A stretch of 64,000 nt of DNA from an uncultured virus (IMG/VR IMGVR_UViG_3300044946_000014) (lineage: Duplodnaviria; Heunggongvirae; Uroviricota; Caudoviricetes), in IMG/VR virus record IMGVR_UViG_3300044946_000014; one strand, 5' to 3'. The stretch's first letter is position 1; every line of letters begins with the position of its first letter. The notes under the pieces are model-generated. The model was given only the letters and a program-made list of their open reading frames with translations. It was not told the origin of the DNA and made no database searches. This document shows, piece after piece, positions 5,992-58,666 of the stretch. The translations under genes were made by a program, and so were the position numbers.

Positions 5992-6079
5992 TCGCCGGGT
6001 ACAACAGATGTTTTGTAGTCCATTGTCCATGGACACGGGACATGCTGAAAATGAAATTTTTATAATGTCAAGTGTCTAA

Positions 6080-7603: not shown

Positions 7604-8086
7604 CTAGACTTCGTGATGGATGACTTCGACCGCCGAAAACTTGTAGCCTTCTTTGGCGTACTTCTGAGCGATCCAGAGCGGGAATGGCATCGTGTGAATG
7701 CCTTCATCCTTGGCGACGTGATGAGTCTTGCAAAGAAGCATTCCATTCACCGTCATATCGTCGACAAACTGAACCCAATCGGTGAAATTGGCCCAATCGA
7801 ATGCTTGAATGTGCTTACCCCAGTAGCCAGCCTGAGCATCAAACTTGAACCGCTCCCAATCGATCATTTCGGCGAGCGAGCGCTCGATCGGATGATGGTG
7901 TGCTTCGAGCGGATGGCCAGATTCTTCAGCGGTTGCATTGCAGATGAAGCACCGTCCATCGCGCGCGATCAATTCCTTGCGGGTGCGCGTGAATAGAGCA
8001 GTTGTCTTGCGCTCTTCATGTGACGGAATGTTCACATCGACGGTGAGCGTTTCGTGTTCAGTGTGTGCCTGAGTGGTTTCGGTCAT
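7604..8086 (-). CDS. HNH-fold-like hypothetical protein
   Basis: RCFIC...LEAHH...NGMLLCKTHH pattern. Confidence 0.55.
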   Translation of the reverse strand: MTETTQAHTEHETLTVDVNIPSHEERKTTALFTRTRKELIARDGRCFICNATAEESGHPLEAHHHPIERSLAEMIDWERFKFDAQAGYWGKHIQAFDWANFTDWVQFVDDMTVNGMLLCKTHHVAKDEGIHTMPFPLWIAQKYAKEGYKFSAVEVIHHEV

Positions 8087-9019: not shown

Positions 9020-10972
9020 CTATTGCTTGAAGTAATTCAATTGCCCAATCAACGTACTGGTGTTCGAAAAATTACTGTTCGTCAACGCACTGGTTCCACT
9101 TGCGCCTTGCGCATACAGATTCACCGTGGTTCCACCGGGAGCGGCTTCGGCCAGGATTGGGCCAGTAAGAGAGGCCATACCACTTGCACCCATGACCGGG
9201 GATACGCCACCGTAATAAAATCCGCTTGCGGGGCCTGGTTGGATTGGAAGGCCGGTAAGCGTAGCTGCGCCAGTCGAAGAGCCAACGGCAGACAGTGACG
9301 TATAGAACTGTACAGATACCTGCATTCCCTTGATTTCGTATTCACACGAGCGAGTGTTGTACGTTAATCCGGTCGATCCGCCACCGAATGCAACGCCAAT
9401 CGAACACGAGGCCGGTCCCCCGTAGATGCGATTTCCACTAGATGACCCGGTTTCTGTGATGCCGTTGTATCCCAAAACCGTATTGTTACTCTGCGTGATC
9501 GCGTGCAGAATGCTGTTGGTCGTGTTGTTCAGGACAACGGCGTATGAACCGTTATTGTTGTGGTTATAGTCATGGATGTCGGCGTCCACCGTGACGTTGT
9601 TCGAATTCGTGACATACACGGCGTCATCGCCCTTGTCGATGTGAATTCCTCGTGCCGTTACGTAAGTGGCACCATTCAAAAGAAGGCCGTATGTTGTACT
9701 TGAACCGATCCATACGTTCGAAAACTGAATATCGGTGGCCGCCTGTGCGTTCGTCCCTTGTTGAATGAGAATTCCGGGGCCGGATGTCGTATCGCTTAGG
9801 ATGTTGGCAAAATGGCCAAATTGACATGGCGTGGTACTTTGCAAGAACGAATATCCACAAAGAGTCCAGCCATTTACGCCGTTTTCGGCTTCGTCGTTGA
9901 CGAATTTCGACCCGGCAAAATACCTCAACTCATAGCCGATATTCGAAACACCTTGAACGGTCATGTTTGTGACGATCAATGCATTGTTTGGCATCGTGTC
10001 TGATACGTTCGTCGGAACGCCAGCGTACAAGCCATCGTAATTCTGTTGACCTCCTGCCCCATACACTCGGACATTGTCAATGACCGTCTGCCATTGGTCT
10101 TGCATATCAAGCGCATGGTAGCAGCCAGTTAAAAACAGGTCACGGATAGTTCCGCTATTCACATAAGTGAAACTAACACCGTGCGCGCTCGTGTTCGACA
10201 ATCCCGGACATTGAATCCACATGGATTGAACGCCCGTATTGTTATCTACGGCCGAAAGCGTTCCGTTATCAACGATGGCTGGAGCATTTGCAGTTTGTTG
10301 GATAACAGTAGACTGCCGAGATTCTCCGGCTAACACAACGCCACTTTTCCCGGTCAAATTCAACGACGAGCTAATCTTGTAGGTGCCACGCGGAAAATTG
10401 ACTTTTACGCCATTCTGGATGACGGTGGAAACCGTTGCCGCGTAATTGATCGCATTTTGAATGCCAGTCGTGCTATCGGTCGAACCAGTCGCATCAACGC
10501 CTGAGAAATCCAGAACTGAAACAGTATCGCCAAACTTGCTCGTCAGAGCGCGCGCGCCAGAACCGGTTGCGCTGAAAAGATATTGCAAATTCCCTGTCGC
10601 CGCCGTGGCCGTAGCTGCGTTCGTCCCGCCATTCGCAATCGGAACTGTCGAAGATCCTAGGATGCTCGTCAGCGCCGCCGCCTGCGTAGTCGCATTCGTG
10701 CCGCCAGAGGCAAAGCCAATCGGCGACGACAGGCCGCTGATCGTGCCGCCAGTGATCGTCGCGTTTGACGTTGCGATGCTGTTGAGCGTCGTCGTACCAG
10801 TGACCGTAAGCGACGGCACCGTCAACGGCCCGGTAAGCGTCGCGCCAGCCAGCGGAACATAGAGCGCGAATTGGTTATTCAGTTGCGCCGCGGTGAGGAT
10901 CTGGCCTGGCGTGAACTGGGCGAGCGCGGGCAGCGAGATGAGCAGCAAGAGAGCGGCTAGGAGTTTTCGCAT
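9020..10972 (-). CDS. tailspike/depolymerase-like parallel beta-helix protein with N-terminal signal peptide
   Basis: VSVLDF..DATGSTDSTTGIQNAI...FPRGTYKI pectate-lyase-3-like start, Asn/Gly-rich beta-helix; MRKLLAALLLLISLPALA signal sequence. Confidence 0.8.
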   Translation of the reverse strand: MRKLLAALLLLISLPALAQFTPGQILTAAQLNNQFALYVPLAGATLTGPLTVPSLTVTGTTTLNSIATSNATITGGTISGLSSPIGFASGGTNATTQAAALTSILGSSTVPIANGGTNAATATAATGNLQYLFSATGSGARALTSKFGDTVSVLDFSGVDATGSTDSTTGIQNAINYAATVSTVIQNGVKVNFPRGTYKISSSLNLTGKSGVVLAGESRQSTVIQQTANAPAIVDNGTLSAVDNNTGVQSMWIQCPGLSNTSAHGVSFTYVNSGTIRDLFLTGCYHALDMQDQWQTVIDNVRVYGAGGQQNYDGLYAGVPTNVSDTMPNNALIVTNMTVQGVSNIGYELRYFAGSKFVNDEAENGVNGWTLCGYSFLQSTTPCQFGHFANILSDTTSGPGILIQQGTNAQAATDIQFSNVWIGSSTTYGLLLNGATYVTARGIHIDKGDDAVYVTNSNNVTVDADIHDYNHNNNGSYAVVLNNTTNSILHAITQSNNTVLGYNGITETGSSSGNRIYGGPASCSIGVAFGGGSTGLTYNTRSCEYEIKGMQVSVQFYTSLSAVGSSTGAATLTGLPIQPGPASGFYYGGVSPVMGASGMASLTGPILAEAAPGGTTVNLYAQGASGTSALTNSNFSNTSTLIGQLNYFKQ

Positions 10973-11015
10973 GTCAGAAATGAAAAAACCGCCCGGAGGC
11001 GGCTAAATGTTTTGC

Positions 11016-11045
11016 TTGACTTCATAGCCCCGAGGGGGCTACGCT
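11016..11045 (+). promoter_or_regulatory. sigma70-like promoter with overlapping palindromic operator
   Basis: TTGACT-N18-TACGCT; TAGCCCC-GAG-GGGGCTA at 11025-11041. Confidence 0.5.
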
Positions 11046-11141
11046 TAAAGAGTAGGGTAGTGCATCGCGCGCAGCCCGCTACCTCCGAAAGGAAGATCAT
11101 GAAACCCTTATTTCGCGAGTGCGCATTGCGCGCTATCAGGC

Positions 11142-11411
11142 ATGTCCATCCGATACTCTCCGCCATCCACGGAAGATCTCCAGAATCTCAAGGCTCGTCT
11201 TGGCTATACTGGCGAGCAGATGGCCGACCTGTTCGGGCTGGCAGGAAACAATCAATGGCGGAAGTACACAGGTGGTCGCGAGCCGCGTCCGATGGGATTG
11301 GCGATGTTGTTTCTCGCGGGAGCGCTGCTCAATCACAACGCGACTGCGGAACAGATCTTCGAATGGTGCCGAGAAGTGGGCGCTACTGTCGAATTGTTGC
11401 CTCGGGAATGA
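11142..11411 (+). CDS. XRE-like HTH transcriptional regulator (moron)
   Basis: LKARLGYTGEQMADLFGL...QWRKYTGG HTH. Confidence 0.75.
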   Translation: MSIRYSPPSTEDLQNLKARLGYTGEQMADLFGLAGNNQWRKYTGGREPRPMGLAMLFLAGALLNHNATAEQIFEWCREVGATVELLPRE

Positions 11412-12124
11412 AAGCCACAACCGTGTTCGCGCTGATTGTCGGAATGGCGGCTTGTGGCGGTGGAGGCGGCGGCGATTCTGCGCAGACGGTGCCGGTCACA
11501 CAACCTGCTGTCACAAAGCATGTCATTGTGCGCCAATACGGGGATTCGACGACATCCGGACTTACTTATCAGAATGGCGCGTACGTTGTTGCCAAGCAAA
11601 CGTCTGCTGATCGACTATACGTCGATCTTCAAGCACAATTTGGCGGCGCGGTCACTGTTGATGACCAGGGTGTTCCGTCAACATGTGCCGAGAATCTTCT
11701 CAATGGTGACGGCGTGCACGCACCATTCGCGCAAGAAATTCAGACAACGAGCGCACAAATCATAACGTTCAATTTCGGAATGAACGACGGATGGTGGTGT
11801 CATCGAACAGTCGATCAGTACGCAGCCGATATGGGACAACTTATCGATATCGCACGCGCAGCAGGAAAAACCGTAGTTCTCGAAGAACCTAATCCGACGA
11901 CGAGTCCAGACAATTTGAATCTTGACGCATACGTGGCAGCACTACGCAGCGTCGCAGCCGATAAAGCCGTACCGCTTGTCGCTCAATACGACTACATCAA
12001 GACTGTATCTAACTGGCAATCTTTGCTTTCAGACGGAACTCACCCTACCATCGTACTCTACGCGATCAAAGGTGATCGCGAAGCCCAAGTAATTGCGCCG
12101 ATCGTCAGTCAATTGTTGAAGTGA
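11408..12124 (+). CDS. SGNH/GDSL hydrolase lipoprotein (moron)
   Basis: MAAC lipobox, YGDSTT, GMND, DGTHP catalytic blocks; antisense to late operon. Confidence 0.88.
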   Translation: MKATTVFALIVGMAACGGGGGGDSAQTVPVTQPAVTKHVIVRQYGDSTTSGLTYQNGAYVVAKQTSADRLYVDLQAQFGGAVTVDDQGVPSTCAENLLNGDGVHAPFAQEIQTTSAQIITFNFGMNDGWWCHRTVDQYAADMGQLIDIARAAGKTVVLEEPNPTTSPDNLNLDAYVAALRSVAADKAVPLVAQYDYIKTVSNWQSLLSDGTHPTIVLYAIKGDREAQVIAPIVSQLLK

Positions 12125-12580
12125 TCAAACCTGCGGCGCCGAAGGTGCCGCAGGCGCAGTCGGCCACGTTACCGTCACTGGGAATCCGGACTGCTTGGTA
12201 ACGTCGCGGAGGGATTGGCGATAGGTAGTCCACGCCTGGAATTGCGCTGTCGTCAGCGTAGTTGGAATGCCAGTATCGATTTGATCTCGGTGCCGTTGCA
12301 CAACCCAATCGCATTGGTTCATCAATCCGTCTCTTTGCGCTCTTACTTGATCGGCCAATTGAGCAGATGTTGGAGAAGGGGCGGCGATCCATACTGGCAT
12401 ACCGCCCGACCCGACGCCGCGAGTCATGCCTTCGGGGGGAGTTTGGCACGCAAATTTTTGAAAAGTGCTGTCGTCAACTGCAACGCCATCTTGCGGCCAC
12501 GCTCCGCGCGCTTGATAGTCGGATTGATATTTTGTTGCGAAGAAGATATTTAGCGACGGGCTAAAAACATAATTTGACAT
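12125..12580 (-). CDS. tail fibre assembly chaperone
   Basis: VRAQRDGLM...W..YRQSLRDV...FP..VTWPTAP motif; follows fibre gene. Confidence 0.85.
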   Translation of the reverse strand: MSNYVFSPSLNIFFATKYQSDYQARGAWPQDGVAVDDSTFQKFACQTPPEGMTRGVGSGGMPVWIAAPSPTSAQLADQVRAQRDGLMNQCDWVVQRHRDQIDTGIPTTLTTAQFQAWTTYRQSLRDVTKQSGFPVTVTWPTAPAAPSAPQV

Positions 12581-12589
12581 ATTGTCCTC

Positions 12590-13822
12590 TTAGTAACCGA
12601 TGCCAAATGCCGCCACGGCAGCAGTACCCGTATTCACGACACACTGCACCTGCGTCAACGAGGGAGGCGATACGGTCGCCGCATATTGGGTGAGAGGGCC
12701 GGAGGATACCGATACGGAACACCACTCGATTTCAACTGCATTCGGAAATGCAATAGGCCAGCTGGCAAGCGTGCCACCAGTGCCTACAGACCCGATTGTC
12801 ACCCATTGCAAGATGGCGGTTTTTTTAACCCCACCAACTATCATGGGGAATTCGAGATACCCACTTGCTGCCATCGACGCCAGGAATTGCCCCAACTGCA
12901 CTGCATGCCCACTCTGCGTGGCAGGGGCGATTTGCCACGGGTCGATATTGACGTTTGTTCCATCTCCCCGCAGCTCGATTGCTCCAGGCACAAGAGTCAC
13001 AGGAGTGCCGCCACTAATGAGTGCCGACAATACGAACGATCCAGGTACCGTCTGGTTGACGATGTACCACTTCTGCGATGTGGCAGGAAACGTAATTTGA
13101 ACGTTCCCCGTCAGCGTGCCTGTGATGAAGATGATGGGTTTCGCTGACTGAACAGACGTCAGCGTGACGTTTGCATTCGTGACTGCTACCGATGTTGACC
13201 CATAGAACGATCCAGGCAACCAATTGCTGCCGCCCGAGGCCGTGATCGTGGTGCTCGACGCTGTTTGCGACGTGCTGACCGTATAAGTGCCATTTCCACC
13301 CGTCCCAGTACCGAGCGCAAGGATCTGGGTGCCAGAAGTGATTCCGGTGCCGGACAGTACCTGGCCGACCTGCACCGTCCCGGATGCCACAGCAGTGACA
13401 GTAAGTGTCGTGCCGCTAATCGAACCGGTGAATGATGCGGAACCGGCGTCCGGATCGGTCTTATTGTTATCGACCGTGTTGCGCCAGAATCCAGTGCCAT
13501 CGCCACTTTGCAGAACAGCGCCATTGGGATAGCCTCCGATCGCATTTGCATACGTCGCGTTATAGACCGGTTGACCGCCTACTTGCTCCCATTGAATGCC
13601 GGCCGTCACCTGATTCAGCAGGCCGTTCATATCCTGTCCGAACGGCGGAACACCGCCAGCATTGACGGCTAGAAAGGTGAGGGGCGGGAAGCCGTCCGTC
13701 AGACTCGCGGCACCGTTTTGAACACCAATTTGACTTGCGACGGGAATCGGCCGGATATAACCAGCACCGGCGGAATTTGCGAACGGTGCCTGGAAAAAAG
13801 TCGGAACCTGGCTAGCCTGCAT
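12590..13822 (-). CDS. tail fibre protein
   Basis: GFPPLT...[13 protein letters not shown]-terminus, [10 protein letters not shown]-terminal gp53-like ILQW...WPIAFPN. Confidence 0.85.
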
Positions 13823-13908
13823 GTTTGGGAAATCCAAAAGAAAAACCCGCACAAGGCGGGTTTGGGGAATAAGGAGTCGCCAGCCGGCGGCGCAATCGAA
13901 ATATGGGT

Positions 13909-14638: not shown

Positions 14639-16084
14639 TCACGAGAAGCTCACTGTGATGTTGCTGACGGCACACGTAGGAACTTGATTGATAGCCATCA
14701 GAACTGAATTCTGATTGGCTACACCTACCCCGACTTGTATAGAATAGATCATTGCCCATGGCCCGAGCGCAGCAATGTTTGCATAGAAACGAGACGCGAA
14801 GATCCATGACCCAATGCGTGCACGCGGCCCATTATCGGCGCCCGTGAACGATTGAAGCACTGCATTCTGTACAAGTTGCACCGCGTTTGATGGAACGCTT
14901 GCATTGCTTTGCATCGCCACCAGTAACGCTACCGAAGTGGGCGTTGGCGTTTCATATGTGACGGTATATTGAGGATACGGAGGGCTATACGGATTGGCCG
15001 TAGTGCCCATGTCAATCACTGTTGCGGACGTATTGCCGTTGTAGTTGCATCCAGGGCTCTTTTTCGTCCAGATGGCTTTACAAATATCCTGTGCAGCACC
15101 ACCGTATGCCGCGACATAGAGAGAGTTTTTCACAAGTTGGACGCCACCAGATGCAATGGTCATTGCTTGCGAACCAACGGTTTGGCTTATGTTGATTGCA
15201 TATGTTCCGGTGCCTCCAATACCTGATCCCAGCGCAGTAATCAACGTCCCCTGAGCAATACCCGCTCCAGTCACCATCTGACCGACAGTAATCGCACCAG
15301 GAAGCCCGCTGCCCGTCCAACTAGGATCGGCGGTCGTTACCGTCAGGGTTGCGCCGCTGATCGAGCCAATGACGCTCGCCCCACTGGTAAAACCATTCAC
15401 GTTCTCTGTTGCGTACGCATCCAGAACGTTGGTTACATCGAACACAGCACCTAGTACGGAAGGCAGTGATCCTTGTGCGTTGAGCGCAACAGATTGGGAT
15501 CGTCTATATTCAAAATCGGCACGAGACTCGACATCATTTCCGACGACACCCGATAAGCAAGTGACAGAATCCCAACCGGAAATGGCCTGATAGATCGAAA
15601 CGCCATTTGTCGCAGGTACAGGGATAGGGCCGGTAGTTGTACAGGCGAATGACGTAGTTACCGAACCGCCCGAGGGAATCGTGACAGTATCCGTGCAACT
15701 ATAGATATTACCGGCCGAATCCTGAAGCAGCGCACTGTTTGCAGGAATCAGAACACCAGCCAGACCATTGCACGAAATTTGAAGCACGGTCGGCTGAGCC
15801 GGGTTTCGCTCGATGTAGTAAATTCGACCAATGGCATCTTGCATGCGTCCCGCCGCATAGGCGGGGTCAACACCATTTGCTAGCGCGAGGAACTGATCGT
15901 TTGCATCACCGATGATTGCAGTGTCGGATTGAGCGATCTGCCCTTGAGGCGTGGTTAAGCCGGGATTGACGTTGCCGCCGAAGGCCGTATTGATGTCGGC
16001 TTGGCGACCAGCAAGAATGGCACTTTCTGCGGGCGCAACGAACCCAGTCGTGCCAAACGAGGGAGCTGGAACATTCGTGGTCAT
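14639..16084 (-). CDS. baseplate J/gp47-like wedge protein
   Basis: TPQGQ, GRMQDAIGRIY, G.DVESRADFEYRR motifs. Confidence 0.88.
   Translation of the reverse strand: MTTNVPAPSFGTTGFVAPAESAILAGRQADINTAFGGNVNPGLTTPQGQIAQSDTAIIGDANDQFLALANGVDPAYAAGRMQDAIGRIYYIERNPAQPTVLQISCNGLAGVLIPANSALLQDSAGNIYSCTDTVTIPSGGSVTTSFACTTTGPIPVPATNGVSIYQAISGWDSVTCLSGVVGNDVESRADFEYRRSQSVALNAQGSLPSVLGAVFDVTNVLDAYATENVNGFTSGASVIGSISGATLTVTTADPSWTGSGLPGAITVGQMVTGAGIAQGTLITALGSGIGGTGTYAINISQTVGSQAMTIASGGVQLVKNSLYVAAYGGAAQDICKAIWTKKSPGCNYNGNTSATVIDMGTTANPYSPPYPQYTVTYETPTPTSVALLVAMQSNASVPSNAVQLVQNAVLQSFTGADNGPRARIGSWIFASRFYANIAALGPWAMIYSIQVGVGVANQNSVLMAINQVPTCAVSNITVSFS

Positions 16085-22177: not shown

Positions 22178-22178
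<1 letters not shown>
21744..22178 (-). CDS. tail tube protein
   Basis: SITSANS, LQGFAEDD, MGADGKLSAG; follows sheath. Confidence 0.8.
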
Positions 22179-23932
<1,754 letters not shown>

Positions 23933-23979: not shown

Positions 23980-24705
23980 TTAGGCGGGATATTGCGATTG
24001 AACGTCGATAGAAGACGACTTCAATTGGTCGGCGAATTGTTGCGGAACATTGAGTGTCGGATTGCATTGCATCACAACATCTACAACCCATCTTTCCTCG
24101 ACCTGCTGTTCTGCATTGGTGAACGGAACTTGATTGGGCTCGCTTGCATAAAGCGGACTGACGTCAAAACCTGTTGCGGCGAATGTCTGTGACGCGTAAT
24201 CGTCGAAGAAGAGAGTCGTGATAATTTGCGCGTTATCTCCGGATGCTGGCCCATGAATGTCTAACTGAACCGTCACTTTCGTGGGCTGCATAACACCCTT
24301 CACCCCGGCTGCCATAATTTCGCTGGCGACATTCTGGGATGGGCTGACGGTATAAGTGCCAACTCCTCCTGTCCCCGTACCCAATCCAGTGATAGTGGTC
24401 GAAGTAACGACGCCAGTTCCGAACACCGTATTCCCGACTGCTATCTGTCCAAGCTGAACGGCGGTGACAGTCAACGTCGATCCTGAGATAGATCCCGTAA
24501 AGGCGCAGTCTTGATAGAGGTCGATGTTTGTCTCAAGACGGCCGCGCAGGATCGGCGTCATTGTGATGAAGTTCGGTCCGGCAGGCTCAGGAACTCGGTT
24601 GTCTTGGCCTCGCACAATCTCCGTGCCAGATGACATCACCGCGAGAAGAAAAGACCGTAGTGCAGTGAGCGTCTGGACTTCGGAGAGAGAAAGACTGACG
24701 CTCAT
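23980..24705 (-). CDS. neck / tail terminator protein
   Basis: [24 protein letters not shown]; synteny. Confidence 0.7.
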
Positions 24706-28530: not shown

Positions 28531-29448
28531 TTAGGCGCTTACTACCGGCCACGTGGTGATCTTGACGAGTTCGCCGGGAGCGCCCGACGAAGCGGCCGTC
28601 CAGTTCGGCAGGAGGGTGCCAGATGCGACCGTGATCGTTTCCGACGAGATCGTCTGACCGATGCTCACGACATACGTGCCGTTACCGCCAGTGCCCGTAC
28701 CGAATGCGATGATCGAGTTACCGGCAGTGATGCCAGTGCCCGAAATTGCATCGCCGAGTGCGAGCGTGCCCGACGAAACTGCGGTCACGGTCATCAGGCC
28801 ATACGAGCCCGTAATCGTGGTGCTGGCAACCGTCTGTGCGGCGCCGCTGACCTGATACGTACCAATGCCGCCAGCCGTTCCCGTAAGTTGCGAGAGGATT
28901 TGCGTGCCAGATGCAACGCCGGTGCCGCTGATCGCTTCACCGATGTTCATTTGGCCGGTCGTGACGACTGTGACAGTAAGCGTAGTGCCTGAGATCGAAC
29001 CCGTCACGACGTCCGTCGCGATCGAGCCGGTAACCGAGGCGCCAGTCCAGTTCGAGCCGAATTGCACTGCGCCGGTCGAGTTGTTGACGTAGATCGATTG
29101 GCCCTTCGAGGACGTCGAAGCACCTGCGTTCTTCGCCCAGAAGCCGCCAGCACTGAACAGCGTCATCGCATAACCGGCCGGCAGCAGAAGCGTGTCATCC
29201 GCCAGGAATGCAGTGATGATGCCTTGCTGGTTACGATGAACGAAACCATCCGGCACGCCCGAACCGTAGTTGTTCACGGTGCGGCCATCTGCCGGATTGA
29301 CCCAGGCGAACGAACCGACAGCTACGCCGTTCGGGCCGGCGACGAGCGCGCCTTGACCGGCATTGACCGTCGCGCGCGGGTTGGAATCGCAGAAGTCACC
29401 GAGTACCGCCGGTGCCGCCTGCACATTGACTTGAGTGGGAAAACCCAT
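28531..29448 (-). CDS. head decoration / cement protein
   Basis: [17 protein letters not shown]...NPRA start; between scaffold/protease and MCP. Confidence 0.75.
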
Positions 29449-29475: not shown

Positions 29476-31945
<2,470 letters not shown>

Positions 31946-44474: not shown

Positions 44475-44915
44475 TCATTTTATTTCCTCCAATTCAGTTT
44501 GTTCCAGTCCCATCTCTCGACGCGTCTGCGCCAACAGTTCTGCCTCAGTCCCGTACCGTCGCTCGAATTCCGCCGGCCCCGCATGAAACGCCACACCCCA
44601 GCCGCCGAGGCGGTGATGTGCGACGCAAAGTGGGATCGTGTCGCGATTGCTTGATCGCTGGCCGGCACCAGCCAGGTATCGCACGTGATGCACTTCTGCC
44701 GGCGATCCATCGAAGCCGAGATTGCGGCAGACGATGCAGCAAAGGCCCGCGACGATTCCCATATGCTCGCGTTCCGCTTTAGTTTTCGACTTCACTCGCG
44801 CCTTGATCGCAGTCTTGCGCGCGGGCTTGGTGCCTTCGGGCAGAGGTGCTGACTTACGCGACCAGATACCGCGAGCCATCGGAGCTTTACGCGGGCCGAA
44901 ACCGGAGCGCTTCAC
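44475..44915 (-). CDS. Ref/DUF968-like HNH recombination nuclease
   Basis: CCIVC...AEVHH...IPLCVAHHR...FERRYGTE. Confidence 0.8.
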   Translation of the reverse strand: MKRSGFGPRKAPMARGIWSRKSAPLPEGTKPARKTAIKARVKSKTKAEREHMGIVAGLCCIVCRNLGFDGSPAEVHHVRYLAGAGQRSSNRDTIPLCVAHHRLGGWGVAFHAGPAEFERRYGTEAELLAQTRREMGLEQTELEEIK

Positions 44916-45182
44916 GATTCTCTCCATGCTTCCAAAGCAGCGCATATAAAGAAATACGCAGCAAGAACAAAGGCGACCCCATCGTTCAAATGGGGCGATG
45001 CCATGACCCAGCCCAATATCACATAGGGGTAGGCTTTTTTCATTTCGCCATCCACCCAAGATAGAAGCCGACCATAGGAGCCGTCCAGATCGCGAGAAAC
45101 TTCCATCCGCGCGAATGGTGTTGAAGCCAGCTCGGATACAGCAACGCGATGCTGATGAATGAGAGTATGCAGATGCCATCCT

Positions 45183-51485: not shown

Positions 51486-52454
51486 TCAAATTCCCGCGAT
51501 CAACATCTTTGCTTCACGGATCCGTTTCTCGCATTCTTGAAGATAAGCGGTGCGGGCTTCTTGCTCCGTCGCGAAGTTGCCAATTCGAGTCGATCCGACC
51601 ATCACCTGATACGGTCGCAGAGTACATTTCTTGTTATACGTCCAGCCTCGACCATGCCCGAGCCTCGACTTCCTATTCGGATTGGCTTTAGCCTTGGCTG
51701 CACGTATATGGCCCGGAGTCTTGATATATCCATCTTTCACGTTCTGACTCTGCGTGCAGATATAGACGTTGCCAACCGAATACGAACCATTGTCGCCCTT
51801 ACGGGCCATAACATAGCCATTGCCACGGCCTCTCTCTTCCCACTTGCCAGACTTCTGCCAAACTGCCCACCACTGCGGGAAAGTCAGAGAAAATTCAATG
51901 TTCCGAAAGGTGCTATTCTTCCTGTGCTGAACGTAAGCCTTAGTAGCTTTGTTGGATGTCAATCGAACGCCAACCCCAAGAAGAGTCTCAAGAGAGGAAT
52001 AAATGCATCCGTAGACGCGGAGGCATTGCTCATCTCGGCGAGCGATGATGCGTGTAGAGCGCGCAACCTTTCGGGCCGCCGAATTGATAGCGATGCCGCC
52101 ATCGAGTCGCGTAATACCACGAGCGGAAATTATTTGGCGGACACGTTCTCGCGTTACACCGTGGATCTCGCCAATTTTCTTGAGGCTCAATCCGGCAGAA
52201 TATGCGTCAATCATTTGCTGTGCGCGGGATTCCGATGTAAGCGACTTTGGCTGGATGCGCTTTCGCTTTGCGCCAGCAGCACGAGCGGCATTGTAGATAG
52301 TCACGACATGTACGCCGTACTTTTCCGCGATTTGACTGGTCGGAATGCCCTTATTCCAATCTTCCGCGAACATGTCAAACGTCAAAATCTTTCGCGCCTT
52401 ACGGGCATTCTGATCGCAGTCGCGGCAATTTGCGGGGACGGTCGTGTAGGCCAT
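51486..52454 (-). CDS. HNH-type homing endonuclease with HTH/sigma70-r4 and AP2-like domains
   Basis: GVTRERVRQI; FSLTFPQWW..W...MARKGD.GSYSVGNV.I....QN; IGNFATEQEARTAY. Confidence 0.7.
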   Translation of the reverse strand: MAYTTVPANCRDCDQNARKARKILTFDMFAEDWNKGIPTSQIAEKYGVHVVTIYNAARAAGAKRKRIQPKSLTSESRAQQMIDAYSAGLSLKKIGEIHGVTRERVRQIISARGITRLDGGIAINSAARKVARSTRIIARRDEQCLRVYGCIYSSLETLLGVGVRLTSNKATKAYVQHRKNSTFRNIEFSLTFPQWWAVWQKSGKWEERGRGNGYVMARKGDNGSYSVGNVYICTQSQNVKDGYIKTPGHIRAAKAKANPNRKSRLGHGRGWTYNKKCTLRPYQVMVGSTRIGNFATEQEARTAYLQECEKRIREAKMLIAGI

Positions 52455-52742
52455 TTAAGCCACCGTTCGGGATTGTTTGACCTTGCGGCTGGACGTGCCC
52501 GCCGACTCTTGCACATCATCGCTGGCGACGATGTTCTCTATGCCGTTACCCCATATATCGGGGCGCAACTCTGCCAGCGTAAAACGCGAATCCTGTCTGA
52601 CAATTTCTTTGCAGAGTTCTGTGCCGGGACGCCGGGCGCCACGAGCGCAGTGGTACAGATAGTCATGATTGACCTCCAAAGACTGAGCGAACGCCTCACG
52701 ATCTGGGCGTTTCGTCTGCTTGAAGTAAGTCTTGAGGTCCAT
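52455..52742 (-). CDS. cro: Cro/YdaS-like repressor
   Basis: short HTH ending ELRPDIW, divergent from CI-like gene. Confidence 0.8.
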   Translation of the reverse strand: MDLKTYFKQTKRPDREAFAQSLEVNHDYLYHCARGARRPGTELCKEIVRQDSRFTLAELRPDIWGNGIENIVASDDVQESAGTSSRKVKQSRTVA

Positions 52743-52776
52743 GCCGCCATCCAAAGGTCTGCGTATGGGATCAGTA

Positions 52777-52793
52777 TAGACCAAAAAGGACTA
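52777..52793. promoter_or_regulatory. OR operator
   Basis: TAGACC-AAAAA-GGACTA near-palindrome overlapping TATACT (-10) on minus strand; matches OL site. Confidence 0.7.
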
Positions 52794-52849
52794 TTGCATA
52801 GGACTTTTTGCGCGTTTATCAAATTGATCTGCGTTGGTAGGGTTGAGTC

Positions 52850-53347
52850 ATGAAAACGTGCCGACAAATACGCTACGAAAACGCGCGAACACTCATCGTC
52901 AAGGATGGCCCTGCGAACTTCGCCAGGAAGATTTCGAGCGCTACCGAAGACGTTATGACGCCCCAGCAAGTCAATTCTTGGGGCGGCCCCAATCCGCGAC
53001 GAGGGATTGGCGATGACATTGCGAGGCGCATCGAGCGAGCATATGAGAAGGAAGAAGGATGGCTTGACCATGAGTGGATCGGCGCTGGCGAAACGCAGAA
53101 CAAAGGCCAAAATCGGGCTCTGAGTAACGAAGCAAAAAGTTTGATTGTGTGTGTCGAGCGTCTGGATGTCCTTGGCGACTTGGCTAGGAAAACATTCACC
53201 TACCATACGGGTTTGCTCTTACTTTCTTTGGCTTCTGCTGAGTTGCAGACTGGCGCAGTGCGGTCCCAAATGTTGGAAGAGATAGAGCGTCTGCTGGGTC
53301 CGACACAAACGGATTCCACGGGGGCATCAAATGAACGAAAGAGCTAA
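52850..53347 (+). CDS. CI-like immunity repressor (no recognisable S24 peptidase domain)
   Basis: IRYENAR.L, RGIGDDIARRIE...GWLD HTH; divergent from cro. Confidence 0.75.
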   Translation: MKTCRQIRYENARTLIVKDGPANFARKISSATEDVMTPQQVNSWGGPNPRRGIGDDIARRIERAYEKEEGWLDHEWIGAGETQNKGQNRALSNEAKSLIVCVERLDVLGDLARKTFTYHTGLLLLSLASAELQTGAVRSQMLEEIERLLGPTQTDSTGASNERKS

Positions 53348-53504
53348 CGGCGCCATTATTGATCTAGCGCAATACCGGCAGCGAATCTTGCAACAACAGC
53401 AACGGAGCGAGCTGCATCGAGATATCTCGGATGCGCTCCTTGATACAATTTCCTATCACATCCTGATGGCCGCCCGAGCCATCGCGGCCTCCAAGACCAA
53501 GTAA
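53331..53504 (+). CDS. small protein co-transcribed with repressor
   Basis: 57-aa ORF MNERANGAIIDLAQYRQR..., overlapping the CI end, followed by terminator. Confidence 0.5.
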   Translation: MNERANGAIIDLAQYRQRILQQQQRSELHRDISDALLDTISYHILMAARAIAASKTK

Positions 53505-53523
53505 GCATCTCCAGTTAAATATA

Positions 53524-53548
53524 GAGCCCGCTTCGCGCGGGCTTTTTC
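53524..53548 (+). terminator. intrinsic terminator
   Basis: AGCCCGC-TTCGC-GCGGGCT-TTTT. Confidence 0.8.
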
Positions 53549-53623
53549 ACGTGCTCAAGATGCATGACTATCGGCATGAAGTGTTCGATTAAAAACAATT
53601 ATGCTGATGATGGGGCAAAAAGG

Positions 53624-53652
53624 TTTGCAAATAGACCAATAAGGTCTAAGAT
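53624..53652 (+). promoter_or_regulatory. pL promoter with OL operator
   Basis: TTGCAA...TAAGAT with perfect palindrome TAGACC-AATAA-GGTCTA (53632-53648) in the spacer. Confidence 0.75.
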
Positions 53653-53713
53653 TCATTCCAAGGCAGTACACGACGTCACGACAGACGAACAACGCAATCG
53701 AAGGGGCAACGAC

Positions 53714-53947
53714 GTGAACGCAGAGACCGAAGCAATCGATACGGACAGCGTCCCGGCCGGCATGGTCGAGGTCAGCGAAGAGAAGTTTTTTGCCGTCATG
53801 GGACCGCGTGACGTGCATCCACGCGCGAAGCCTGATCGCAGCGTTTGGGAAATGCCGAATCGCACGGTGCTCGGCCACTCGATGCCGGGATACCTGGCAC
53901 CGACTGGAAAGCCGAAGCTCTTCTTTCTGACGGCCAGTCTCGCCTAA
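53714..53947 (+). CDS. hypothetical protein, first gene of pL operon
   Basis: AAGGGG RBS + GTG. Confidence 0.55.
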   Translation: MNAETEAIDTDSVPAGMVEVSEEKFFAVMGPRDVHPRAKPDRSVWEMPNRTVLGHSMPGYLAPTGKPKLFFLTASLA

Positions 53948-53975
53948 CAACCGCTCCCGCTACAGGAGAAAGACC

Positions 53976-54077
53976 ATGCGCATTGATCTCGATCTCTATC
54001 GCGAACTGCGAGCCGAGGGATGGGCCGCCCAAGCAGCGATCTTTTATGCGCGTCGCGCCGGCCGTTGGCTTGCCTGA
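53976..54077 (+). CDS. 33-aa peptide MRIDLDLYRELRAEGW...
   Basis: AGGAG RBS within repeated junction motif. Confidence 0.55.
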   Translation: MRIDLDLYRELRAEGWAAQAAIFYARRAGRWLA

Positions 54078-54104
54078 CCAACCGCGCCTGCTAGGAGAAA
54101 GACC

Positions 54105-54311
54105 ATGGCACACCAAACGATGAGTGGGCGCTCTGCGCAGGCTCAAATCGACCTCGCGACTGAACGCTATTCCCATCTGCTGATGGAGGACGAGTGGACG
54201 CTCGAATATGCACATCAAGTCCTAGCGCATATCGACGCGCACCACATCGATCTATTTGAGGTGGCCGGACTTGCGAAAGCGATCGCGTGCTTTCAATGCG
54301 CCGCTGACTGA
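54105..54311 (+). CDS. hypothetical protein
   Basis: AGGAG RBS within repeated junction motif. Confidence 0.55.
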   Translation: MAHQTMSGRSAQAQIDLATERYSHLLMEDEWTLEYAHQVLAHIDAHHIDLFEVAGLAKAIACFQCAAD

Positions 54312-54339
54312 CCAACCGCGCCCGCTACGGCGGGAAAAA

Positions 54340-54410
54340 GATCGAAACGCCTAGAGGAAGCGGCAACACACGGCTAGGTGTCTACGCGTGATGCGCGTAC
54401 TGACGAGATC
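54340..54410 (+). ncRNA. hammerhead ribozyme, type II topology
   Basis: GATC-GAAA-[CGCCTAG..CTAGGTG]-TC-[TACGCG-TGATG-CGCGTA]-CTGACGA-GATC; all core nucleotides present. Confidence 0.85.
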
Positions 54411-54477
54411 GTAATAGCGCCAACGGGCGCGCCGTTCTGGTGACAGCGGGCGGGTTCTTTAAAAATCGACGGTTTTG

Positions 54478-55492
54478 ATCCGGGACGCGCAAGCGAGCAA
54501 CCGGGCGTTGTGCTCATGGTGCACACGAGATAGCGCTAGGACAGGCAACCATTTCCCGAAAGGGACACCGAACAAAGCAACCGCTGGTGTAGAAAGCGGA
54601 GCGCCCGCGATAGTCGCGTGACCAGGTGAGTCATGATGGCGTCACGGAAGGCGTGCGGCCCGGGAATACAGACCGGCGCCGCACGTAAAGCAGTTCTTCT
54701 GAGAAGGCCGCTGAACTCCCTACGCGGCCGAGTAATCGCGAAACCGATCCACCTTAATGCCCAGCCCCTCGTGGCGGGTTGGTGCAGTAGATTAGCCGAA
54801 GGCCGCTGTATAGCAACAGCGCCTTCTCAGAAGGATTGCGGTAGAGCAGCGTGTGCATCCACACCGCGAAAGCGGGTTGCATGAACGGGAGAAGGTGGAT
54901 AGGCCCGTTTCTCCAGGCTGGCACGGAGACTTTGTCGGAACGGCGTACCGCAAGAAGCCAGTTAGCTCCGCCCGATTGACCGCCGTAAGCGGTCGCCCGG
55001 TAAGCGCATTCGTTGAGTGTGCTTACCGGGACTGGATGACTTTGCGGAGGTTCAAGACGGTCCCCATAAATGTCCACGAATCTCCAAAGTTGGCGACTCA
55101 ATAGCCTGGCAGCCCGGAAAGACGGCCCTCAGCAGTGCTGAGGCGAGACGATTGCCGCGGAAGCGGTGCAGGCACTGTCCGGGAGCCAGCCTTAAGAACA
55201 ATCGTCTCGACCTGAGCATTGCAAGCAGCTTGAGTGGATGGTGCTATGCGGCTCCTAGCGAGCTGGTGACGTGCGCTGGCAGACATGGAAACGGCGATGC
55301 TTAGGCATTTAGGTCCGCCCATAGCCGATCGGAAACACAGGCCGATCCATAGCGTCATCCACTGAAGCTGTTTCAAGGCACCCCACCCAAGCAACCCGCA
55401 GACATTGACGATTGGGCCTCGTCAACCATACCCCATGCTTAGGGATGAGACTCCAAAACCGCTGCCTGATGCGGAATCTGCCGGTTGCTTGG
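54478..55492 (+). ncRNA. array of structured non-coding RNA units
   Basis: no credible ORF; multiple 15-26 bp closing stems and GNRA hairpins. Confidence 0.6.
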
Positions 55493-55529
55493 CTGGACTG
55501 CTTTTTCTGTCACTAATTTAGGACTCCAT

Positions 55530-55637
55530 ATGCTTTGGGGAATTGTTGTGACACTCATCGCTGCGTTTGCTCTGTTCTTGTGGGCACTTCGCAGCGGCTT
55601 CAAGATCATCGAGAGAGATGATCATCATCGGCATTAA
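55530..55637 (+). CDS. 35-aa membrane peptide
   Basis: AGGA RBS; MLWGIVVTLIAAFALFLWALRSGF... Confidence 0.5.
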   Translation: MLWGIVVTLIAAFALFLWALRSGFKIIERDDHHRH

Positions 55638-55649
55638 CTAGGAGCAATC

Positions 55650-56012
55650 ATGCAGATTCAGCTTCCCCCGCTCACTGACGGCGAGATTTATCTCTGCGGC
55701 TTCGTCGACAAGAATGGCGACGTCACTCACACGATCCTGCTGCCGGGTGACAACGATCCTGCGACATGGCAGGAACAGATGAACTGGGCCAAGAGCATCG
55801 GTGGTGATTTGCCGACGCGCGCCGAGCTCGTGATCGCCTACGAACAGCATCGCGACCTGTTCGAGAAGGCTGCGTACTGGTCCAACACGCCGGACGACGC
55901 CCCCGACTATGCCGGCTGGGCTTGGTGTCAGGGCTTCGGCCACGGTAGCCAGAACTGTGACGGCCGCTACTTTCAGTTCCGTGCCCGGGCCGTTCGCAGA
56001 TTGTCGATTTAA
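55650..56012 (+). CDS. DGR target protein 1 (DUF1566/C-type-lectin-like fold) with C-terminal VR
   Basis: LPTRAEL, YWS, WAW.Q.F..G.Q......FRARAVRR; VR 55912-55999. Confidence 0.88.
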   Translation: MQIQLPPLTDGEIYLCGFVDKNGDVTHTILLPGDNDPATWQEQMNWAKSIGGDLPTRAELVIAYEQHRDLFEKAAYWSNTPDDAPDYAGWAWCQGFGHGSQNCDGRYFQFRARAVRRLSI

Positions 56013-56041
56013 CCCTTCATCCATTTTCAACGGAGAAAGCA

Positions 56042-56506
56042 ATGACGATGACGCTTGAAGCAATCGAAGCCGAGCACGTGCGCATCGGCGCGATGATCGA
56101 AGAATTCAAGAAGCAGCCGAGAGCAACCGAGTACCATGTCGACGCCGTCACCATCCCGCTCGCGGCAGGTGAGCGCATCGCCGGCCAGATTCTTCTCGAA
56201 GACGGATCGTTGAGCCACTACCTGATTCTCCTGCCGGGGGAGGCCGAAGATCTGGATTGGGAGGCGGCGAAGGCATGGGCCGCCGAACGTGGCGGCGAAC
56301 TGCCGACGCGACGGGAGCAATCGCTTCTGTTCGCCAATCTGAAGCCTGAGTTCGAGCCGACTTGGTACTGGTCCGGCGAACGTCACGAATCGAACTCCGG
56401 CTGGGCTTGGTTTCAGTACTTCACCAGCGGTACCCAGTACTCTACCGGCCACGACAATCAGTTCCGTGCCCGGGCCGTTCGCAGGTTCATTCCTTCAATT
56501 TTTTAG
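56042..56506 (+). CDS. DGR target protein 2 (DUF1566/C-type-lectin-like fold) with C-terminal VR
   Basis: LPTRREQ, WYWS, WAW.Q.F..G.Q......FRARAVRR; VR 56397-56484. Confidence 0.88.
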   Translation: MTMTLEAIEAEHVRIGAMIEEFKKQPRATEYHVDAVTIPLAAGERIAGQILLEDGSLSHYLILLPGEAEDLDWEAAKAWAAERGGELPTRREQSLLFANLKPEFEPTWYWSGERHESNSGWAWFQYFTSGTQYSTGHDNQFRARAVRRFIPSIF

Positions 56507-56518
56507 TCATTCATCCCC

Positions 56519-56728
56519 ATGGCGCTTCATACCGAGCTCGACATATATCGAGATGCGTGTGACTTGTTTGCCGCGATCGCGAATGCCGTCGCGAACATGC
56601 GAAAGGACTTCAAGCCATTGATCGGTCAGGAGCTTTTGAGAGAAAGCACGCGAATCACGATCTACATCTTCCGCGCGAATGCGGCCACCGACAAGGCGCC
56701 GCATCTGATGAAGAGCGCACATCCATGA
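56519..56728 (+). pseudogene. avd: truncated Avd (four-helix bundle DGR accessory protein)
   Basis: LHTELDIYRDACDL...KDFKPLIGQEL....IFRAN resembles Avd helices 1-2; ends at 69 aa. Confidence 0.75.
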
Positions 56729-57324
56729 ATCCAAACGGCAACATCAAACACGGTCATCACGGATCGCGAACGTACCAGCGTTGGAAGTCCATGCGCCAGC
56801 GCACCAATCCGGGCCGGAGCGCGCATCACGCGAAGTATTACGACGGAGTGACATGCTGTGAACGGTGGGCAGATTTCGAAGCATTCCTCGCTGATATGGG
56901 CGAATGTCCCGCCGAGCATACACTTGATCGTTTCCCGAATGCGAATGGTAATTATGAACCGGGAAACTGCCGCTGGGCGACGATGGCCGAGCAGAACGCC
57001 AATCGCTCTAACTGCCACATGATCACACGCGATGGCGTGACGAAAACAGCAACGGAATGGGCGAAAGCACTTGGATTGCGACCAGTCACAGTCATCGCCC
57101 GTTTGCAGCGCGGCTGGGATCATGAGCGTGTACTGTCTGAGGCACCGGGAACGACTGGTGGCTGCTCATATCCAGAGATTGATCTGACATTTCGCGGACA
57201 GACCAAACCTCTCGTTGCATGGGCGCGCGAGATTGGAATGACGCCCAATGCATTTCGAATGAGATTGCGGCTCGGCTGGTCAGTCGAGCGCGCACTCACG
57301 CAACCACTTAAGGCGCGCGGCTAA
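56725..57324 (+). CDS. HNH-like endonuclease with duplicated C-terminal HTH
   Basis: W.SMRQR, CERW..FEAFLADMG, TLDR...NGNYEPGNCRWAT..EQ.ANR; two G.TK....WA..LG....RL..GW..ER.L repeats. Confidence 0.85.
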   Translation: MNPNGNIKHGHHGSRTYQRWKSMRQRTNPGRSAHHAKYYDGVTCCERWADFEAFLADMGECPAEHTLDRFPNANGNYEPGNCRWATMAEQNANRSNCHMITRDGVTKTATEWAKALGLRPVTVIARLQRGWDHERVLSEAPGTTGGCSYPEIDLTFRGQTKPLVAWAREIGMTPNAFRMRLRLGWSVERALTQPLKARG

Positions 57325-57448
57325 GGGAGTTCGACATATTTCCTACGCGCATATCTGCCAAATATTACTGGAGGAAATGCCGTGGAAGTCTTTCTGATTC
57401 TGCTCATTTGGATACTCGTGCTTCTCGCGCTTCTTATGGGCCGGTGAC

Positions 57449-57739
57449 ATGAGCACTCTATCCGAAACAATGCGCGGCGTTGAGTATCGGGACGCGCGCA
57501 TGCAAGCGCAGGCCGAACGCGATTCGCAGCGTTTCGACGCCGGCCACGAGCTTGGCATGGCCGAGGCCGAACACGAGATTGCTGGCTTTGCGAAGAAGTT
57601 CAAGTTTGATCCGAACGAGCCAATGGATGCCCGCTGCCGTCGTTTCGTGGCCGAGTTCATCGATAGCTGCGATTGCTGCTATGACGAACTGGCGAAGGCA
57701 GTTGCTGAGGCGACGGGAGTGTTTAACGGAGAGGTGTGA
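57449..57739 (+). CDS. hypothetical protein
   Basis: ORF in pL operon. Confidence 0.5.
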   Translation: MSTLSETMRGVEYRDARMQAQAERDSQRFDAGHELGMAEAEHEIAGFAKKFKFDPNEPMDARCRRFVAEFIDSCDCCYDELAKAVAEATGVFNGEV

Positions 57740-57740
57740 G

Positions 57741-58163
57741 ATGGCACAGATCGGGCACGAAGAAGGTGAACAATGCGGCCGCGACGGTTGCGATGGGCGC
57801 ATTGAATACACGAAGCCGGAAAACTGCTCTTGCCACATTTCGGCGCCATGCAGCGCGTGCACCAATACCTACCTGCATTGCCCCAATTGTGGATGGGAGG
57901 CGCAAGAGCAACTGTTCAACGATTACATCGTGACGGTCAACACGAAGAGCCATGTGTACGAAGCATGGCGTCCTCGGCCGCTCGATCCGACGAAGGTCGA
58001 CTGGCACAGCAAATCGCATTCGTCGTGCTCAATGATTAAGGAAGGCGTCTATCCAGACGGCGCAACGCGCGATGACGTGCGCAAGATTGTCGACGGAACG
58101 TTCGGCGGTCACTTCGAATATTTTGGTGGCGGAAAGTTCAAATTCATAGCGTACACGGATTGA
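57741..58163 (+). CDS. Cys-rich hypothetical protein
   Basis: GAGG RBS; CGRDGC, CSCHISAPCSAC, CPNCG. Confidence 0.6.
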   Translation: MAQIGHEEGEQCGRDGCDGRIEYTKPENCSCHISAPCSACTNTYLHCPNCGWEAQEQLFNDYIVTVNTKSHVYEAWRPRPLDPTKVDWHSKSHSSCSMIKEGVYPDGATRDDVRKIVDGTFGGHFEYFGGGKFKFIAYTD

Positions 58164-58171
58164 GGTGAATC

Positions 58172-58381
58172 ATGGACTGGAACCGAGGCGATCTCGAATT
58201 GAACGACGGGATGCTTTACTCGAACGGTCGATTTCTCGGCACGTTCTCTTGCTGGGCCGCCGGCAAGGAAGCAATCGGGATCATGAAAGAAGGGCGGCAG
58301 GTTTGCACTGCTCGCGATACACACACGATGTCAGAGGAAGACATCGATCTGATGCTGGCCATTAATTATGACGAGAGGTGA
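58172..58381 (+). CDS. hypothetical protein
   Basis: GAGGTGAATCATG start context. Confidence 0.55.
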   Translation: MDWNRGDLELNDGMLYSNGRFLGTFSCWAAGKEAIGIMKEGRQVCTARDTHTMSEEDIDLMLAINYDER

Positions 58382-58384
58382 ATC

Positions 58385-58666
58385 ATGGCACTCACTCCCG
58401 AAAAGCGCAAAGCTTTGAAACTGGCACGCAGAATAATAGAAGATAATAAATCTTATTTTATTTGCATTGCTCTTGATAATGTGGAATCAGATTATCCTGG
58501 TCTGACGCAGGCATGCTTTAGCCTCAGAAGTTACATAGCAAAAAAACTCGGATCACATCATACGCTTGATTCGTGGTCAAAGTCGAAGGCTAGACGCGGG
58601 TCGATTACGGTAAAACAGGGGCGCGCATTACGTTTGGCATGGATCGACTGGATGCTCGGAGACTAA
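58385..58666 (+). CDS. hypothetical protein
   Basis: same GAGGTGAATCATG start context; AT-richer; ends RLAWIDWML. Confidence 0.55.
   Translation: MALTPEKRKALKLARRIIEDNKSYFICIALDNVESDYPGLTQACFSLRSYIAKKLGSHHTLDSWSKSKARRGSITVKQGRALRLAWIDWMLGD

Follow-up and report, generated by a model that had tools for sequence, protein, structure and literature searches.

The window analysed here is a stretch of 64,000 nucleotides from an uncultured Caudoviricetes virus (IMG/VR record IMGVR_UViG_3300044946_000014), taken from a contig of 66,761 bp, so that 2,761 bp lie outside all window searches. On its plus strand, two small adjacent genes, T1 and T2, end in closely similar variable repeats (VRs) of the type associated with a diversity-generating retroelement (DGR), a system that also comprises the accessory variability determinant (Avd), a template repeat (TR) and a reverse transcriptase (RT). 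The two genes are followed by a truncated avd gene, here called avd', and by an HNH endonuclease gene, and the block that holds T1 and T2 resembles a cassette of Burkholderia phage Magia. The features are these:

55650..56012, plus strand: T1, gene of a 120-aa stand-alone DGR target with a C-type-lectin fold (DUF1566/Lcl_C-like)
56042..56506, plus strand: T2, paralogous target gene of 154 aa, with an N-terminal amphipathic helix (residues 5-23) and then a C-type-lectin-fold domain
55912..55999, plus strand: VR1, variable repeat at the 3' end of T1, including a 26-nt invariant GC-rich tail at 55974-55999
56397..56484, plus strand: VR2, 3'-terminal variable repeat of T2, whose identical invariant tail occupies 56459-56484
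56519..56728, plus strand: avd', 3'-truncated accessory variability determinant gene of 69 codons, in which Avd homology stops at 56709 (codon 63/64)
56725..57324, plus strand: HNH endonuclease gene, at the place of the avd remainder, TR and RT in relatives; its ATG overlaps the avd' stop codon
55637..56615, plus strand: mosaic block with 72-85% nucleotide identity to the T1-T2-avd 5' part of Magia-like cassettes, between unrelated flanks

A first-pass annotation, made from the letters of the window without database searches, had called DGR mutagenesis at this locus from two 88-nt regions that match at 72 positions, with 16 differences restricted to the first and second positions of 11 codons and an invariant tail behind the variable part, in open reading frames (ORFs) of 120 and 154 aa. 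All of these observations were reproduced. Pairwise alignment and a repeat finder independently return the direct repeat 55912-56002 versus 56397-56487 as the sole long one of the region, and within it VR1 and VR2 are the same at 72 of 88 nucleotides. The 16 differences fall in 11 codons (T1 residues 93, 95, 97, 98, 100, 102, 103, 104, 106, 107 and 108), every one at codon position 1 or 2, and all 29 third positions are the same; the probability that 16 random differences would all miss third positions is about 7.6e-4. An identical 26-nt tail, CAGTTCCGTGCCCGGGCCGTTCGCAG, closes both VRs and provides the invariant GC-rich 3' segment of an initiation-of-mutagenic-homing (IMH) region. The tail occurs in exactly two copies in the window with up to 3 mismatches tolerated, where 100 shuffles lead to an expectation of 0; comparison with an IMH* is impossible for the window VRs, the window having no TR. 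The non-variable positions of the two VRs are the same at 72/72 sites, while the DNA of T1 and T2 upstream of the repeat shows 55.6% identity (144/259 aligned columns). Perfect identity beside such diverged upstream DNA is therefore not the product of ordinary paralogy or common descent, and the repeat has been homogenised in another way.

Homologous loci supply the engine that would do so. A distant blastn search of 55400-57400 against phage records returned six that cover approximately 55632/55641-56552 at 76-82.5% identity: Burkholderia phages Magia (two accessions), vB_E192a and vB_PL1, and two 47,902-bp records named Hujiaoplasma and Shewanella. The gene order T1-T2-avd-TR-RT is intact in Magia and vB_E192a. 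The Magia annotation describes gp47 (120 aa) as 'lectin fold domain protein; potential DGR target, contains IMH-like region', gp46 (154 aa) as a hypothetical protein, gp45 (118 aa) as 'Avd protein of DGR' and gp44 as 'Reverse transcriptase', and the Magia TR is a third, AAC-codon-rich copy of the repeat between avd and RT (L001:6402-6491). The VRs of Magia and E192a depart from their own TR at TR adenines only. With the TRs of these two phages as proxies, which is how the template-adenine test was made for the window, 16/16 differences between VR1 and VR2 fall on template adenines (26 A in 88 nt; hypergeometric P=3.7e-11). Across the family, TR-VR differences number 608 at adenines and 7 at other bases (53 VRs, 25 TR-bearing loci); this tally leaves out L025 (TR copy under the A-count threshold), L021, L026 and L027 (no TR), L030-L049, and a few VRs under the 72% scan threshold. 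On the evidence of the sequences, the VR1/VR2 pattern is that of DGR adenine mutagenesis of two target genes from one template. Of the 64 non-A positions of the 91-nt repeat, only 51 are shared between the window VRs and the Magia TR; VR1 and VR2 are thus the same as each other where they mismatch the Magia TR, and therefore both were written by the lineage's own TR.

A T2 search of IMG/VR and a T1 search of species genomes added 27 further loci, for a total of 29 (L001-L029). RT is present in 26 of these, 74-94% identical to the Magia RT by tblastn, and is missing from L021, L026 and L027, the last of which stops at the contig end. Among 20 loci collected with avd' (L030-L049) it is present in 14, so that 40 of 49 loci have an RT. 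The first-pass annotation had expected phages with an intact avd-TR-RT to exist, and such cassettes are present in Magia, vB_E192a and dozens of related (pro)phage loci; it had named homologous loci that never carry TR or RT among the observations that would count against its reading, and the observed distribution is the opposite. The TR that it had reconstructed closely resembles real ones, for example that of L009. A call of DGR mutagenesis from sequence alone was thus correct despite the absence of the template from the window. Several related loci have a third T1-like target farther upstream. A protein search with T1 yielded 1,789 relatives; among the 120 matches listed, nearly all source-named entries are called DUF1566 proteins, and the named organisms belong mostly to Burkholderia and Paraburkholderia, Trinickia, Ralstonia and Sphingomicrobium appearing once each.

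Three observations concern these related cassettes. Magia gp46 (L001:5403-5867) has a VR at L001:5758-5848 with 11 differences from the TR, 11/11 of them at adenines within 88 nt. The genome announcement (PMC7883833) describes 'a potential DGR' and names genes 47 and 57 as its targets, yet gp46, annotated only as hypothetical, carries a VR as well. Two complete T1-T2-avd-TR-RT cassettes, L003 and L007, lie about 48 kb apart on one 96,280-bp IMG/VR contig, and therefore cells can hold two such DGRs simultaneously. OP650936.1 ('Hujiaoplasma phage zrk29-1') and OK094664.1 ('Shewanella phage vB_Sb_QDWS'), each 47,902 bp with a Burkholderia-type cassette at 76% identity, prompt the question whether a single phage stands behind both records, under host labels open to doubt.

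The avd-like gene noticed downstream of T2 in the first-pass annotation is real, matching phrog_3206 'Avd protein of DGR' (E=1.8e-8, profile positions 10-76 of 154), but it is only a 69-aa stub. It aligns with residues 1-63 only of the 118-aa Magia Avd (48% identity, tblastn) and is 81% identical at the amino acid level to the full-length avd product of locus L030. In the DNA alignment with the L030 gene, homology breaks off after ...CATCTGAT (56709); the reading frame closes six unrelated codons farther on, and Avd is not intact. The HNH gene starts 15 nt past the end of avd homology. It matches phrog_3377 HNH endonuclease (E=1.7e-45, residues 8-197 to profile positions 6-191 of 196), a whole-protein profile match that leaves the assignment putative as to catalysis, and its DNA is weakly similar to that of HNH genes in Ralstonia and Burkholderia phages. 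A tblastn search with the 362-aa Magia RT against all 64,000 bases found no RT (best E 5.3) and no detectable RT stub. No TR was found in the window either, the scan for repeat copies giving two copies only and no third copy of the tail at up to 3 mismatches, and tblastn revealed no third T1/T2-like gene there. To title the window a DGR, as had been done, is therefore not warranted: TR and RT are absent from it, avd is cut after codon 63 and an HNH gene stands next. The window's DGR is a decayed, engine-less copy of a known, annotated family.

Outside the window, the best 120 of 5,943 protein matches to the Magia RT include none on the window's contig, a depth too shallow to exclude an RT there. 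An exact search for the window-specific VR tail gave 0 matches in IMG/VR and 0 in metagenome contigs, in a searched set from which the window's own record was possibly missing. Neither the cassette nor either end of the window finds a match in the nearest genome record (G001, 23.4 kb). In soil metagenome run X1, which may be the source of the window, a single 5,282-nt contig spans 55400-57400 with 0 differences, and no other contig of that run falls on the VRs; contigs prove presence and not absence, so this is no proof against a TR. In soil run X2, contigs of 151 nt fall on avd' and on the HNH gene, with 12 and 4 differences respectively. A 626-nt contig from the soil RNA library X3 covers 55792-56411 with 69 differences; it comes from a relative and is no sign of window transcription.

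The edges of the mosaic block are visible in blastn comparison with the 29 loci, in which alignments begin at 55636-55669 and finish at 56489-56615. Within it, avd' has an affinity of its own: compared with the Magia-group avd genes it reaches 43-49% identity with dS saturated at 1.3-1.9, against the 81% shared with L030. An L030-type template was considered as the source of the window VRs and rejected, as L030 has the closest avd but a TR unlike the window VRs. In base composition, G+C at third codon positions is 0.76 in T1 and 0.72 in T2, and the region has 58-60% G+C versus 55% for the window, a bias that would fit import of the T1/T2 block from a higher-GC Burkholderia-type phage. Engine loss is found in other members of the family: L026 has an HNH gene of another family (phrog_6254) directly after a T2 whose C-terminus is altered, in L021 avd breaks off at approximately codon 54 and RT is missing, and L036 retains a full-length avd, yet neither TR nor RT within 4.8 kb. 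The junctions differ among these three loci and the window, and the losses are therefore independent; the window adds one more, here to an HNH gene, with the diversified targets left intact. At least three HNH endonuclease genes of different PHROG families are present in the window (9-332, 7604-8086 and 56725-57324), with weaker, second-rank HNH matches at 44475-45179 and 51486-52454, and the phage is heavily colonised by genes of the homing-endonuclease type.

The first-pass annotation had placed both proteins in the C-type-lectin fold, and the predicted structures agree. Pfam PF07603 (Lcl_C) matches T1 with E=1.4e-5 (25.8 bits) and T2 with E=3.8e-5 (24.4 bits), both under the 34.9 gathering cut-off; the identical database protein P0001 bears a precomputed PF07603 label, and relatives are source-named DUF1566. 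T1 shares 79% amino acid identity with Magia gp47, and T2 shares 83% with gp46. The AF2 model of T1 (pLDDT 92.9) has the C-terminal domain of Legionella Lcl as its top Foldseek match (8q4e_A, TM 0.69). Compared by VIA, the same model matches the Lcl domain with Z 13.1 over 111 residues (root-mean-square deviation 3.3), the C-terminal domain of Bdellovibrio Bd2740 with Z 12.2 and many C-type lectin domains with Z 9-10.5; among DGR targets, Mtd (1yu0) reaches Z 8.4 over 111 residues (root-mean-square deviation 3.0) and TvpA Z 8.1. The T2 model (pLDDT 73.7) consists of the helix 5-23 and a lectin fold in residues 36-152, a domain that matches the Bd2740 C-terminal domain with Z 10.1 and Lcl with Z 8.4. 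Neither T1 nor T2 has a hydrophobic N-terminus or transmembrane segment (maximum 19-residue Kyte-Doolittle means 0.68 and 1.09). Scaffold dN/dS against seven relatives is 0.08-0.16 for T1 and 0.04-0.21 for T2, and the scaffolds have thus been under purifying selection. The N-terminal helix of T2 (window 56042-56120, residues 1-25) shows heptad spacing, with L5, I8, H12, I15, I19 and F22 at the a and d positions, and L023, L024 and L026 (at 6001-6486) have an exact 7-residue insertion inside it. This spacing and insertion suggest a candidate coiled-coil neck or oligomer, as in collectins or tetranectin; tetranectin matches the T1 model with Z 9.8 and the T2 model with Z 5.6 by VIA. Prediction of a T2 trimer scored 0.24 versus a mark of 0.42 and carries no weight either way.

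PHROG annotation of 93 window ORFs gives the map around the locus. The plus strand runs from a repressor (52850-53347) through small ORFs to T1-T2-avd'-HNH, then through further small ORFs to a Sak4-like ATPase (61333), an exonuclease (62189) and a C5 methyltransferase (63201 to the window end), and at the window start the same strand holds an HNH gene and an integrase (3603-4598). The minus strand carries, besides a second repressor-like gene (52455-52784), the genes for replication, terminase, head, sheath, baseplate, fibres (9020-13852) and endolysin. T1 and T2 are 41.8 kb from the fibre gene at 12590-13852. This confirms the first-pass annotation, which had put them in an early operon at a distance of about 42 kb from the fibre; the plus-strand operon is headed by a repressor, and this setting recurs in relatives. 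Up to a distance of 6 kb, the same-strand surroundings of 12 diverse related loci (95 ORFs) consist of recombination, repressor, methylase and integrase genes, and in 12/12 none of these ORFs has a tail, head or lysis family as its best match. About 42 kb away, the window phage has its own conventional receptor-binding set, consisting of a fibre with Gp53-like_C, a fibre assembly protein, a pectate-lyase-like spike and a GDSL esterase.

Taken together, we assign a probability of roughly 0.78 to the window locus being a DGR remnant that sits in the early-left operon of a temperate phage of the myovirus type, sampled in a soil metagenome. In the ancestor, one TR would have been transcribed and copied by the DGR reverse transcriptase with Avd, with adenines misread, and the cDNA would have replaced the 3' ends of the adjacent paralogues T1 and T2, so that 11 codons of a C-type-lectin-fold surface became hypervariable. 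Later the locus would have lost the TR, the RT and the 3' half of avd, and the HNH gene now stands there. With the engine gone from the locus, T1 and T2 are most likely frozen, one variant each, and the early operon probably still yields them as soluble binding proteins.

Several points weigh against this account. Subtracting approximately 550 nt for the missing part of the methyltransferase, and 120 nt for that of the HNH gene cut at the window start, leaves about 2.1 kb of the contig beyond the window, just enough for avd-TR-RT. Magia gp41 shares 90% identity with this window-start HNH gene, a homologue of which lies directly 3' of RT in L022 and L028. The zero divergence at the 72 non-variable VR positions implies either a recent loss or a template surviving somewhere. 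As avd' is of another lineage than T1 and T2, the history is mosaic and a single deletion may be too simple a story.

Alternatively, the DGR might still be active, with a complete avd-TR-RT in the 2.76 kb outside the window, in a co-resident prophage or in the host diversifying VR1 and VR2 in trans, and with the avd stub as rearrangement debris. The room in the 2.1 kb, the RT-adjacent homologues of the window-start HNH gene and the absence of decay at the non-variable positions are all compatible with such activity, DGRs with non-adjacent targets are known (Wu 2018, PMC5758913), and the contig with both L003 and L007 carries two cassettes. We nevertheless consider continued activity unlikely. 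The engine directly follows T2 in every RT-bearing locus examined, and the methyltransferase at the window end, 78% identical to L023:8258-9607 (449 aa), has its L023 homologue directly after the RT and not before it. Because a broken avd occupies the place of the engine in the window, an engine hidden in the 2.1 kb is in itself quite unlikely. TRs of other lineages differ from the window VRs at 13/64 non-A positions, the 3' tail included, so foreign TRs would not maintain these positions but overwrite them. The opposite proposal, that no DGR ever acted here, draws on the ability of gene conversion to homogenise paralogues and of positive selection on binding residues to concentrate changes at codon positions 1 and 2; the coincidence of 16/16 variable positions with TR adenines of homologous intact DGRs, the avd stub adjoining T2 and the family count of 608 to 7 leave it hardly credible.

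As to function, we commit to T1 and T2 as presumptive soluble early-operon binders of some ligand, now frozen. The first-pass annotation had further proposed that they act inside the cell, which we regard as possible at somewhat short of even odds, its basis being gene position: a place in the early operon argues for a soluble protein expressed early or in the lysogen. The absence of a signal peptide is uninformative here, because virion proteins assemble in the cytoplasm and need none. Surface or glycan binding is the reading favoured by the fold relatives and by the lectin-like neck, and to our knowledge all characterised relatives of the T1/T2 fold (Mtd, TvpA, Lcl) act on a surface. T1 and T2 might accordingly act outside the cell, attached to the virion or released by lysis, binding cell-surface or matrix glycans like other CLec/DUF1566 proteins and affecting adsorption. 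The closest solved folds (Lcl, Z 13.1; Bd2740, Z 12.2 and 10.1), together with the also matched Mtd and TvpA, belong to proteins that act at surfaces; BFVD matches include DUF1566 domains that terminate long fibre-like phage proteins; the heptad-spaced T2 helix with its 7-residue insertion in three relatives recalls coiled-coil-necked lectins such as tetranectin; and a virion protein would require no signal peptide. The 12 related loci without tail, head or lysis neighbours and the separate receptor-binding set of the window phage oppose this placement, and we hold it only tentatively. More speculative, and doubtful on present grounds, is the idea that phage DGRs of this widespread Burkholderiaceae family may tune no adsorption but build a repertoire of tiny soluble lectin-fold binders, expressed early or in the lysogen and directed inside the cell against host defence proteins or competing phages. 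If that were true, two 'chosen' specificities would have stayed with the phage once the diversifying engine had been removed by a homing-endonuclease gene. The wider question is the ligand and site of action of small early-operon lectin-fold targets, for which the cultivable Magia or vB_E192a, with a working cassette, are better suited than the relic.

The closest known system is the DGR of Magia (NC_070954; PMC7883833), vB_E192a and vB_PL1, which has the same two targets in the same order, with VRs of the same position and length, and the same early-region setting between recombination genes and integrase, at 82% nucleotide identity over window 55641-56552. It differs in that Magia has a full 118-aa Avd, a TR and an RT, where the window has an avd stub of another lineage and an HNH gene. 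The DGR of Bordetella phage BPP-1 (mtd-avd-TR-brt) is the founding system; its target Mtd, a large protein of the tail-fibre tip, has its gene among those of the tail (described in Benler 2018, PMC6199706). The window shares with BPP-1 the adenine-specific TR-to-VR pattern in NNC/NNT-type codons, the VR at the 3' end of a C-type-lectin-fold protein and the Avd accessory gene. Unlike in BPP-1, the targets are of 120 and 154 aa without any other domain, there are two of them, they lie in an early operon and the engine is missing. The weak DUF1566/Lcl_C matches over the VR region are reminiscent of category 'd' (CLec2; DUF1566, DUF823, Fib_succ_major; Legionella LdtA) in Wu 2018 (PMC5758913), where about half of category 'd' targets are short with the DUF1566 domain alone and 13% of DGRs (50/372) have two targets. 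LdtA is described in the same source as a surface lipoprotein, which distinguishes it from T1 and T2 with their lack of a hydrophobic N-terminus or transmembrane segment. The T1/T2 DGR family is already annotated in Magia (PMC7883833), and short DUF1566-only targets and double targets are already described (PMC5758913). Phage DGRs are reported from temperate phages only, with most targets of 'unknown' function (Benler 2018, PMC6199706), the viral targets of DGR clades 1, 4 and 6 are reported to be mostly tail proteins (Roux 2021, PMC8144416), and DGR-based immunity has been proposed (Belalov 2023, PMC10053308). A full-text literature search returned no study of these early-operon targets beyond the Magia genome announcement.

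Other features of the window deserve brief mention. A 35-codon ORF (55530-55637, plus strand) with one strongly hydrophobic segment (Kyte-Doolittle 2.44) stops 12 nt before T1, just outside the block common to Magia-like cassettes. The preceding 1.2 kb (54312-55530) has no convincing ORF, and parts of it (54337-54421, 54973-55080 and 55107-55204) show 72-84% identity to unannotated DNA of Burkholderia phages BcepC6B and Mica and Ralstonia phage UAM5; the interval could be a conserved non-coding element. An Rfam scan of 52000-58500 produced one chance-level match only, and in a promoter and terminator scan of 52300-57600 sites were no commoner than in shuffled sequence. Among the structural genes, a module of approximately 70-85 aa (phrog_21413 / phrog_38233) is inserted in five proteins, all encoded on the minus strand: fibre, baseplate wedge, sheath, neck-terminator-like and minor capsid proteins (host genes 12590-13852, 14639-16084, 22178-23905, 23980-24705 and 28531-29448). 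The module has no Pfam name and also forms a 58-nt DNA repeat family of four copies. The head maturation protease (29476-31449, minus strand) has an N-terminal NUDIX/MutT-like domain at residues 36-163.

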